Positions 39,801 to 45,863 of a DNA stretch of 64,000 nt are shown one piece after another; within the stretch, counting starts at the first letter, position 1; every line of letters starts with the position of its first letter. This DNA comes from Thermoanaerobaculia bacterium (GTDB taxonomy: Bacteria; Acidobacteriota; Thermoanaerobaculia; Multivoradales; Multivoraceae): positions 17,134 to 81,133 of the forward strand of contig DATKBT010000030.1 in the NCBI GenBank assembly GCA_035546295.1, read 5' to 3'. A program made the position numbers and the translations under genes. Under the pieces are notes generated by a model that was given only the letters and a program-made list of their open reading frames with translations, made no database searches and was not told the origin of the DNA.

Positions 39801-40386
39801 CCTGCGCACGATGGCGAGGCTCGATCCGGCGGTCGACCGGGTTCTCGGCTTCACGCGGTACCGGATCGACGGGGACCCCCGGGAGGAGGGCGCCCTGGTG
39901 CGGGTGGTCGACTCCGGCGGCGTCGCACGGGACCTGCGCTCACGCACGCACGACAACCCGGCGCTCAAGGGGACCAAGAGAAGGGTGGCGGTCGAGGGAC
40001 GTGTGCTGGTGGCGCGCGGTCAGAGCGACGGTCGGACCTTCGCGCTCGTTCCCGAGATCGAGGGCGGGAAGACGCGAGGGCTGACCCTGATCCACGTCGA
40101 GCTCGCCGAGCAGGTCGCGGCGGGGATCCTCCGGGAGGTCCTCTCCGGCTACCGCGACCGCTACTCCGAGCTCCGCGACCTGGTGATGGAGACCGAGAGC
40201 GGCTTCCCGGACGAGCTGCTCACTACTCTGCCGGTCGCCGACGTGCTGACCGCGCCGCCAGAGGAGGTCGTGCGCCGGTGGCGGTCTTCCGGTGACGGCG
40301 AGGCGGGATCGGAGCTCGGCAGATCCGACCGGGCTCCGGCGGCGGGAGGGCGCGCGGCGGCGAAGGGGGCGCGCAGGACGAGCTGA
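36811..40386 (+). CDS. Giant GlmS-like glutamine amidotransferase/SIS protein (1191 aa)
   Basis: MCGII (Ntn Cys), RGRDSAG, GHTRWAS, ANAHP, SQSGTTTDT, VASTKAFY, IKLSEL, KHQAKTVTVG. Confidence 0.85.
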   Translation: MCGIIAILRRRSTSPAPDLEQLEAELRQSLGDIDGEVSDPSLAHRLERVAVRLAKADRQLATAAGVRALVLDRDAERSLREIVGELRDRVEALEAALDRAPVDSRGVESLNAGLVSLRDVVFSLERDRLDGARAVRELARGHEHEAAVTALFSIHQTLRALDRLEVRGRDSAGLVVVLRNLELDAESAPVSEQLASRADPLLGHRAVRLLPAAGEGQGTLTLAYKRAAEIGELGDNVRFLREAIRDDDLLHLALAGARIEATVIGHTRWASVGMISEANAHPLDERTSVEPLGNGASVIAVLNGDVDNYADLKAAAGLRFPEAITTDAKVIPALVSTRVARGVEPVDAFRETVAAFEGSVAIVALDLARPDRLWLATAGSGQGLYVGLSPDDLSPDHEASAEGVFMVASEPYGLVEQTRRYLRLDGTRGGQVVVLDGDAAGRLTGIERRGYDGSELPVAESELVVADLTTRDIDRGDAPHYLRKEIAEAPRSFAKTLRGKIVGPEGAKRVELTEETIPPDIASRLENGSFRRILVIGQGTAAVAGAGVAEALERALALEPLAPSVTSLCATELSGFQLRDDMSDCLVVAVSQSGTTTDTNRTVDLARSRGAAVLAIVNRRHSDLVSKADGVLYTSDGRDVEMSVASTKAFYSQIAAGVLLASAIADRVHGGPSGGAARQALLAALARLPEAMRRVIDERSAEIARVAEQLAPPRRYWALVGNGPNRIAAREVRIKLSELCYKSIACDATEDKKHIDLSSEPLILVCAAGLVGSTADDVAKEVAIYRAHKATPVVICSEGESRFAAAVERIEVPRVHPALDFVLSAVVGHLFGYFAAQAIDTQARPLRRIRGAIESAVQRWPSGDGTVEPLALLASEIAEPARAFSRGLAERRYDGHLEASTALPLWRLLHVLDRPDALDTYAREWGRPASPGPFLEDLAAAATRAIDELTRPIDAIKHQAKTVTVGISRSDEALFSVPLVKALLETGIDRAVLSYADLRTMARLDPAVDRVLGFTRYRIDGDPREEGALVRVVDSGGVARDLRSRTHDNPALKGTKRRVAVEGRVLVARGQSDGRTFALVPEIEGGKTRGLTLIHVELAEQVAAGILREVLSGYRDRYSELRDLVMETESGFPDELLTTLPVADVLTAPPEEVVRRWRSSGDGEAGSELGRSDRAPAAGGRAAAKGARRTS

Positions 40387-40403
40387 AGCCTCTGCTGCTC
40401 CTT

Positions 40404-40436
40404 CGCCTCACGAGCGCCTCACGAGCGCCTCACGAG
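40404..40436 (+). repeat. Tandem repeat, 11 bp x 3 (CGCCTCACGAG)
   Basis: Read directly, just downstream of the GlmS-like stop. Confidence 0.9.
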
Positions 40437-40600
40437 GTGTCTGAAGGAACCGCCGCTCGCGAAGACTCCGGGGGTGCGCGAGGGACGAACGAGGTTCTGT
40501 CCGCCCTCGGCCGACATCGCGCAGCCGAGGTTTCCACGAGAGGATTCTCAGCCGTCGTCGGGCCAGAGACTCTCCGCCGGCCGAGACGAGTGCGGAACGT

Positions 40601-40915
40601 TCGACAAAATCGTCCGATCGACCGGCAGCGCTCGACAATTCTGTCGATGAGACGGCAAGTCCTCTGGATGGTTCCGTTGAATCGGCGGGCGCCCACGTGT
40701 CTGTCGGCCCTCGCGTCGAGATCGACATTTTTGTAAGGCCTCGACCGGCTGGTCCTCCTCCACTGTCGGAGCCGAAGAGCCTGCCCGAATGGAGATTGCT
40801 CCCGCTCCGCTCGGGATCAGCAGGTGGCACAACGGTTGCTGTGGTACCGGGACCAGTACCGGGACCAGTCTGACAAGATCGTCTTCCGGATCGCTCCGGT
40901 CGACATGTTTGTCGT
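40601..40915. promoter_or_regulatory. Repeated palindromic motif TCGACA-N4-TGTCGA around the glnA promoter (candidate regulator sites)
   Basis: Perfect copy at 40632-40647; variants at 40601, 40722, 40870 and 40900. Confidence 0.6.
40825..40840 (+). promoter_or_regulatory. Sigma54 (-24/-12) promoter of glnA
   Basis: TGGCAC-AACGG-TTGCT matches the consensus TGGCAC-N5-TTGCW, 140 bp upstream of the glnA ATG. Confidence 0.88.
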
Positions 40916-40980
40916 TGCGAGAGCGCCCGGCTCGAACCTGTCTCCGAGACGGTGCGTTCCCTAGAACCTCAGGAGGAGTG

Positions 40981-42383
<1,403 letters not shown>

Positions 42384-42393
<10 letters not shown>

Positions 42394-42435
42394 CGACGAC
42401 ATCTGACGACGACCACTGACGACGACCACTGACGA
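42384..42435 (+). repeat. Tandem repeat, 13 bp x 4 (CGACATCTGACGA / CGACCACTGACGA), starting in the last codons of glnA
   Basis: Read directly. Confidence 0.9.
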
Positions 42436-42574: not shown

Positions 42575-44209
<1,635 letters not shown>

Positions 44210-45170: not shown

Positions 45171-45863
45171 GTGGAGAGGCCCCCGGAGATGACCCCGAGC
45201 CCGATCGCCGGCAGCCAGAGCGGCGCCGGCCTGCCCGCGCTGCCGGCGACGCTGCCCGAGCTGCGTCACGTGCGCACGCTGGGCGCGACGCCGGAACGCG
45301 AGCGCCAGGCGCGCCGAGACGCCCGCCTGATGGCCGAAGTCAAGCAGGGGGATGCGCACGCGTTCGAGCAGATCGTCGACGGCCACAAGGACTCGCTCGT
45401 CAACTACCTCAGTCGCCTGACCCGCTGCCGGGACCGGGCCGAGGAGTACGCGCAGGAGGCCTTCGTGCGTCTCTACCAGAACGCGGACCGCTACGACGAG
45501 CGGGGGCTCCTCGCCGCCTACCTGTTCCGCGTCGCGACCAATCTGGTGCGCACCGACGAGCGCCGGCGGAAGCGCTGGCGCCTGCTGGTCCCGTTCATCG
45601 AGCGAGATGATCGCTCCCGGGAGCCCTCCCCCCAGCGCGAGGTGCTCCACGAGGAAGCGTCCAACGTCGTGGCCGAGGCGATCGCCCAGCTCCCCCTCCA
45701 TTTTCGCGCGCCCCTCGTGATGCGCGAGATCGAGGGATGGTCCTATCAGGAGATCGCGGAGGCCCTCGGCTGCCGGATCGGCACCGTGAAGTCCCGCATC
45801 AACCGCGCCAAGGCGCAGCTGCGCGAGCGTCTCGAGCGCTACTGGCAGGGGGAGGGGCGATGA
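45171..45863 (+). CDS. ECF (sigma-70 family, RpoE-like) sigma factor
   Basis: AEEYAQEAFVR, YLFRVATN, MREIEGWSYQEIAEALGCRIGTVKSRINRA; ATG 45189 is an alternative start. Confidence 0.93.
   Translation: MERPPEMTPSPIAGSQSGAGLPALPATLPELRHVRTLGATPERERQARRDARLMAEVKQGDAHAFEQIVDGHKDSLVNYLSRLTRCRDRAEEYAQEAFVRLYQNADRYDERGLLAAYLFRVATNLVRTDERRRKRWRLLVPFIERDDRSREPSPQREVLHEEASNVVAEAIAQLPLHFRAPLVMREIEGWSYQEIAEALGCRIGTVKSRINRAKAQLRERLERYWQGEGR

Follow-up and report, generated by a model that had tools for sequence, protein, structure and literature searches.

Paired 16-bp sites around the glnA promoter of a Thermoanaerobaculia genome and a GAF-domain sigma-54 activator as their probable binder

Three pairs of 16-bp sites, six in all and conforming to nCGACA-N4-YGTCGn, flank the sigma-54 promoter of glnA in a Thermoanaerobaculia genome, and the comparative sequence data presented below make it quite probable that they are enhancer sites of the GAF-AAA+-HTH activator encoded by the adjacent gene. 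In this Thermoanaerobaculia family, the protein would activate nitrogen assimilation, the task that falls to NtrC in enterobacteria, and would not be a nif regulator. Acidobacteriota are among the most abundant bacteria of soil, and our search of the literature returned no paper on sigma-54 or nitrogen-assimilation control in Acidobacteria; a one-component, NifA-like GAF activator, pairs of a 16-bp motif spaced by 30 bp and a sigma-54 regulon of few operons would together make up the first concrete nitrogen-control model for the phylum.

Six paired sites at glnA

The window, by which we mean the whole stretch of DNA analysed (64,000 nucleotides; C30:17134-81133), belongs to a draft genome of 6.57 Mb that is 70.6% GC and 94%-complete. 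The glnA gene (40981..42393, + strand) is preceded by AGGAGG and encodes a type I glutamine synthetase of 470 aa with the Pfam domains Gln-synt_N and Gln-synt_C, scoring 683 bits against NCBIfam TIGR00653 (cut-off 429). A spacer of 594 bp, in which the sites lie, separates its start at 40981 from the end of a long GlmS-like gene (40386). The sigma-54 promoter TGGCACaacggTTGC within this spacer (40825..40839, + strand) has GG at -25/-24 and GC at -13/-12, and would place the predicted glnA transcription start near 40851. It is the sole perfect match to TGGCAC-N5-TTGC in the whole 64-kb window, which bears out the first-pass annotation of a perfect sigma-54 promoter of glnA. Sigma-54 itself is encoded in the genome, with the Sigma54_DBD domain of rpoN at C125:438833 (222 bits). 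A search of the glnA 5'UTR against Rfam gave no credible match to a known RNA element.

Two of the pairs lie upstream of the promoter and one lies 3' of the predicted start, from which all site centres are counted here. The distal pair (40601/40632, 31 bp apart) consists of S1, TCGACAAAATCGTCCG (40601..40616; centre ~-242, 19.1 bits), and S2, TCGACAATTCTGTCGA (40632..40647; centre ~-211), a perfect palindrome and, at 25.1 bits, the top-scoring site of the genome. In the second pair (40692/40722, 30 bp), the proximal site S4, TCGACATTTTTGTAAG (40722..40737; centre ~-121, 20.9 bits), is accompanied 30 bp upstream by S3, CCCACGTGTCTGTCGG (40692..40707; centre ~-151), a weak site of which the right half alone is good. 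The downstream pair (40870/40900, 30 bp) joins the weak S5, CTGACAAGATCGTCTT (40870..40885; centre ~+27, 12.2 bits), to the strong S6, TCGACATGTTTGTCGT (40900..40915; centre ~+57, 21.1 bits), whose score was never reached when the 5'UTR was shuffled 2000 times. The four TCGACA sites noticed previously at 40601, 40632 (the perfect palindrome), 40722 and 40900 were thus all recovered. A further one claimed at 40870 is present, but it is weak and does not carry TCGACA. S3 is a sixth site added to that earlier list; it resembles a conserved cACGTTTGTCgg element that stands ~30 bp upstream of an ACA-N4-TGTA site in the porin promoters of genus g11.

Directly over the predicted start lies a tandem duplication, read from the sequence, of two exact copies of the 12-mer GTACCGGGACCA (40844..40867, + strand). 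Because this 12-bp unit was duplicated, S5 starts 45 bp after the start of TGGCAC in this genome, compared to 27-37 bp for the corresponding site in four relatives, a displacement of about 12 bp away from the promoter. Short tandem repeats were also observed in other spacers, where ~2.7 copies of GCCTCACGAGC occupy 40405-40436, directly 3' of the stop codon of the GlmS-like gene, three copies of CTGACGACGAC(C)A occupy 42392-42434, directly 3' of the glnA stop, and repeats of the GGTGTGGATCGA type are found in the porin 5'UTR of the same genome (C49:7395-7445). These repeats may reflect a replication-slippage habit of the genome.

The enrichment of the motif was assessed at several levels. Searched for as a full palindrome with 3 mismatches allowed, it gave 97 matches in the window where 33 were expected, and this search, swamped by GTCGAC-type coding sequence, was dropped. 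As the loose palindrome is common through GTCGAC-type codons, the core was tested instead, and the 594-bp spacer was found to hold five ACA-N4-YGT cores against 0.18 expected, a count of five being reached by 0/1000 shuffles. Likewise, 4 of the 19 TCGACA-W.W.-YGT words of the genome fall in the glnA spacer. Using a weight matrix derived from the conserved sites, we then scanned the whole genome for above-threshold pairs. Only four pairs spaced 29-32 bp apart were above threshold in 6.57 Mb, and six pairs were found over the other 49 spacings tested. Two of the four are at glnA, one precedes amtB-glnK and one precedes a Gcw_chp porin gene, all of them with -24/-12 promoters. Two high-scoring single sites were judged to be chance occurrences, one (C83:13125) lying inside an open frame of coding-like composition, and the other (C167:69751), which precedes a ClpS-like gene, not being followed by a -24/-12 element.

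Conservation of the motif and its association with the regulator

Orthologues of the regulator are present throughout the family at 70-79% identity, the nearest named relative being Candidatus Multivorans thiocomprendens (Acidobacteriota, Thermoanaerobaculia; 74% identity). Among twenty orthologue loci retrieved with 1.5-kb flanks, glnA adjoined the regulator in 3/20, and glnA and amtB were therefore searched for separately. An ECF sigma factor gene was observed 3' of the activator gene both in the window (45171-45863) and in Ca. Multivorans (L071:7574-8278); the activator-ECF neighbourhood, being found in both, is therefore older than the adjacency to glnA.

The regulator adjoins glnA in four other genera (represented by genomes G003, G007, G014 and G004), and in all four the sigma-54 promoter before glnA is kept. 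The five glnA promoters, that of our genome included, share one layout (5/5) in which a distal pair of sites 30-31 bp apart is followed by a proximal site 100-119 bp ahead of the -24 box, by the sigma-54 promoter and by a post-promoter site. The last starts 27-37 bp after TGGCAC in the four other genomes and 45 bp after it in ours; it is strong in three of the five genomes and weak in two, with a combined shuffle P of ~3e-6. Around the sites, the sequence upstream of glnA is otherwise not alignable among the five genomes. Position and spacing are thus kept in orthologous glnA promoters, which argues for the enhancer role that the first-pass annotation had proposed.

The first-pass annotation had also pointed to amtB/glnK as a place to look for the motif, and a pair was found there, at C85:5663/5693, with the promoter TGGTTCggctcTTGC, a -24/-12 element with 2 mismatches, 90-140 bp downstream. 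A similar pair (C49:7077/7107) precedes the gene for a Gcw_chp (PF09694) porin, with the perfect promoter TGGCACggcgcTTGC at the same 90-140 bp distance. Judging from these arrangements, the GAF activator and its motif appear to control amtB-glnK and the Gcw_chp outer-membrane porin in addition to glnA. The regulon seen in this genome is small, comprising these three operons.

Within the family, 12 of 15 regions upstream of amtB carry a 29-32 bp pair that none of 300 shuffles matched, and in three genera 103-104 bp separate the proximal site from the beginning of the amtB promoter. No such pair was found at amtB in any of five genomes from sister families, whose best match to the regulator is 37-53% identical and which have no orthologue of it. 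Regions upstream of amtB in two sister families were seen to carry repeats of the TGTGCA/TGCACA type (L169 in G057 and L170 in G042), for instance TGTGCAAAATGA...TCATTTTGCACA in G057, an observation that suggests NtrC-like control of amtB in sister families without the GAF activator. The amtB promoters of genus g11 (L165-L167) and of the outgroup G046 (L171) share a conserved TGGCACGAT(T/C)CTGG element, with CTGG where the -12 region would have TTGC; kept even in a sister family, it may represent a sigma-54 promoter with an unusual -12.

It is the regulator, and not glnA, that the motif accompanies through changes of gene order. In the large genus g11, glnA is found at another place and lacks both the promoter and the motif; what follows the regulator gene there is a conserved sigma-54 porin (Gcw_chp) promoter with cACGTTTGTC and an ACA-N4-TGTA site upstream. 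In G002, a pair and a promoter precede the gene for a short (type II-like) glutamine synthetase, itself just upstream of the regulator. Beyond the family, strict pairs of 28-33 bp occurred within the fetched flanks of 13 of 79 other regulator loci from public genomes (L072-L150). At loci labelled as Blastocatellia, Acidobacteria, Vicinamibacterales and Latescibacterota, where the regulator is 50-57% identical, pairs lie 30-130 bp before the start of the regulator gene itself. An extra pair is found directly 3' of the regulator gene in L079, L082, L090, L091 and L102, with a -24/-12 element after the pair in L079 and L082; a type III glutamine synthetase (glnN) is encoded next in L081, L082, L084 and L150. 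Since three types of glutamine synthetase and several gene orders share one regulator and one motif, the comparison provides strong evidence that the regulator binds the motif. The link to the adjacent NifA-like protein, conjectured earlier, gains support from a motif that accompanies the GAF-AAA+-HTH activator across phyla.

Two of the distant loci deserve separate mention. In Spartobacteria bacterium LR76 (L099:7270-8324), the near-perfect CCTACA-N4-YGTAGG palindromes CCTACATTCGCGTAGG and CCTACATTTCTGTAGG stand 31 bp apart directly upstream of nifH, and an orthologue of the activator, 50% identical, is located 1.7 kb upstream of them; the same type of motif may control nitrogenase in that lineage. 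In one Acidobacteriota MAG (L102:5479-8067), the nearest large gene after the 30-bp pair located 3' of the activator encodes not a glutamine synthetase but an Amidohydro_3 family protein, which could be an additional, ammonium-releasing member of the regulon.

The activator, a proposed mechanism and the alternatives

The gene at 42575..44209 (+ strand) encodes a NifA-like enhancer-binding protein of 544 aa in which Pfam recognizes GAF, Sigma54_activat (the AAA+ domain, with GAFTGA) and HTH_8, and no Response_reg receiver domain. It is 40-45% identical to proteobacterial NifA-like proteins and reaches 545.4 bits against the NCBIfam nifA equivalog TIGR01817, whose cut-off is 528.85; the alignment covers residues 45-473, leaving the HTH outside. 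In alignment the NifA interdomain insertion is missing, and the recognition helix differs from the proteobacterial NifA helix MTPRQIAYRIQTLNI. No nifH was found in the 94%-complete genome, where the NifH model gave nothing beyond hits of 24-31 bits over its N-terminal part; automatic annotation would therefore mislabel this protein as NifA. Where nitrogenase is missing from a genome, proteins that pass the NifA model are probably regulators of assimilation, and NifA calls in metagenomes should therefore not be taken as evidence of diazotrophy. As the first-pass annotation had stated, the motif is unlike the NtrC and NifA consensus sites, neither of which is present in the glnA region: TGT-N10-ACA, the NifA UAS, has 0 matches in 40387-40980, and the glnA intergenic region holds no full sites or half-sites of the NtrC motif TGCACC-N5-GGTGCA.

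By guilt by association, this activator is the most likely binder of the sites. In the mechanism that we propose, activator dimers would bind the 16-bp palindromes, which are paired three helical turns apart and would thus present both dimers on one face of the DNA; paired dimers would then build up the active hexamer, which would contact the sigma-54 holoenzyme at 40825-40839 through a DNA loop and use ATP hydrolysis to open the promoter, thereby activating glnA, amtB-glnK and the porin gene under nitrogen limitation. From what is known of NifA biology, the NifA-type GAF domain would be the sensor of nitrogen status, with 2-oxoglutarate, a PII protein or both as the signal; two PII proteins are encoded in the genome.

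That the array could be a functionless accident of composition in a TCGA-rich, high-GC genome, or the remnant of a local duplication, is a reading to which we attach almost no probability. The 97 loose palindromes of the window are indeed plentiful, TCGACA/TGTCGA occurs at a density of 0.85 per kb, and short tandem duplications are frequent in the spacers of this genome, but the core is enriched at P<0.001, pairs at 30-31 bp are confined to nitrogen genes, and the sites are kept across genera and phyla in promoters that are otherwise unalignable, so that the comparative data already contradict an accidental origin. It is less far-fetched, though still improbable in our judgement, that the sites are genuine regulatory elements bound by another protein, either a receiver-type activator of the NtrC family or a classical repressor, and that the linkage of the GAF activator to glnA has another cause. 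Some 19 sigma-54 activators are encoded in the genome, among them full-length receiver-type matches to the ntrC model (424-446 bits), and the recognition helix of the GAF activator is unlike that of DVU1949, the Desulfovibrio regulator to which a near-identical motif was assigned. Against a different binder stand the pairs found right beside the gene of the GAF activator in several phyla and under many unrelated gene orders, as well as the absence of the amtB motif from sister families devoid of the orthologue, two of which have TGCAC-type palindromes in its place. Furthermore, no protein in any of 61 related genomes, inside or outside the family, reaches the NtrC equivalog cut-off, a result that at the same time renders a test of complementary distribution with NtrC uninformative.

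The part played by the downstream pair (40870/40900) is a separate matter. With the activator gene placed after glnA, a loop of positive feedback through the sigma-54 promoter would arise. No site was found in the glnA-activator spacer of the window, and autoregulation here would therefore have to run via the glnA promoter. A candidate terminator hairpin between the two genes was rejected, its stability being no better than that of shuffled sequences (z = -1.04). The downstream pair may limit expression at high activator level, in line with the repressive role that the first-pass annotation had considered possible for it. The bolder proposal, namely that the pair is a brake with which the activator, once its level rises, caps its own loop from ~+27/+57, and that a helix unlike the NifA/DVU1949 type has arrived at the same ACA-N4-TGT, is one that we regard as doubtful; if true, a single GAF activator would both turn on and restrain nitrogen assimilation in a major phylum of soil bacteria. 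There is a fair-sized, if less than even, chance that the pair is no brake at all and belongs instead to a position-independent enhancer, or forms an operator over a second, basal promoter of the sigma-70 type that activator binding would silence, in the logic of E. coli glnAp1. Enhancer sites acting from both sides of a sigma-54 promoter are indeed described for NtrC (Reitzer and Magasanik 1986, as cited in PMC4641369), and the 30-bp pairs of distant relatives, 30-130 bp before the regulator start with no -24/-12 element nearby, have the appearance of sigma-70 autorepression. A basal promoter of this kind is not favoured by the region 40380-41000, where no sigma-70-like -35/-10 pair was found, and the conserved place of the site, 27-37 bp after TGGCAC, suits a roadblock and an enhancer equally.

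Relation to known nitrogen regulators

The arrangement at hand resembles that of NtrC (NRI) at E. coli glnAp2 in its sigma-54 glnA promoter, in the position of the regulator gene 3' of glnA and in the inclusion of amtB-glnK in the regulon. At glnAp2, too, the enhancer sites are paired with a spacing of about three helical turns; the NtrC pair lies roughly between -110 and -140, and further sites are present. Unlike NtrC, the activator described here has neither a receiver domain nor an adjacent partner kinase (no NtrB gene was found next to it, its neighbours being glnA and an enoyl-CoA hydratase gene), and its presumed motif is not TGCACC-N5-GGTGCA. With NifA it shares the GAF-AAA+-HTH order, sigma-54 promoters and ACA/TGT half-sites; it differs in that the order and spacing of the half-sites are opposite (ACA-N4-TGT here, TGT-N10-ACA for NifA) and in that its targets belong to assimilation. 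Another related case is AQ_218, a NifA-like protein of Aquifex aeolicus that Studholme et al. in 2000 reportedly found to bind upstream of glnBA. Both cases pair a NifA-like activator in a non-diazotroph with a glutamine synthetase operon under sigma-54 control, although Aquifex belongs to another phylum.

The first-pass annotation had considered the motif to be distinct, and here it has to be corrected, since the same 16-bp (G/T)ACA-N4-TGT(C/A) architecture was predicted for DVU1949, a single-component activator of Desulfovibrio vulgaris to which a nitrogen regulon was assigned by comparative genomics (Kazakov et al. 2015, BMC Genomics 16:919, PMC4641369). The 16-bp motif given there is TTGACA-N4-TGTAAn, exemplified by TTGACATTTCTGTAAG, TTGACATATATGTCAA and TCTACATTTTTGTAAG, with sites often 30-32 bp apart (PMC4641369, Additional file 4), and the predicted targets are the amt-glnB, glnN, glnA and gltB-type operons and the operon of the regulator itself (PMC4641369). 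The likeness thus extends to a single-component GAFTGA regulator with the same domain order, to a palindrome with an A/T-rich spacer (TTGACATTTCTGTAAG and TCTACATTTTTGTAAG there, TCGACATTTTTGTAAG here) and to targets in ammonium assimilation, which are glnA and amtB-glnK in the present genome and glnN in distant relatives. The differences lie in the flanks of the motif, TCG...CGA here and TTG/TTT...AA in Desulfovibrionales, in the phylum, in the smaller regulon seen here and in the adjacency of glnA to the regulator.

They also lie in the DNA-binding domains. DVU1949 has the HTH ALRRNGWIQHKAARELGLTPRQMGYRIRQW, and both it and a Desulfohalobiaceae homologue (45% identity) are of the NifA type, GW(I/V)Q...(TP)RQ(M/I)(G/A)YR, whereas the protein studied here has ALK-x-x-RGN...RI-x-x-YK, a different helix. 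T-x-R-x-(M/I)-x-Y-(K/R)-I is common to the two helix types, which makes a shared ACA/TGT half-site plausible. Where unlike helices go with like predicted motifs, either ACA/TGT half-sites are recognized by both helix types, or one assignment, for DVU1949 or for the present protein, is wrong. The present analysis extends what was a purely computational prediction for DVU1949 from Desulfovibrionales to other phyla, and both inferences are strengthened by their agreement.
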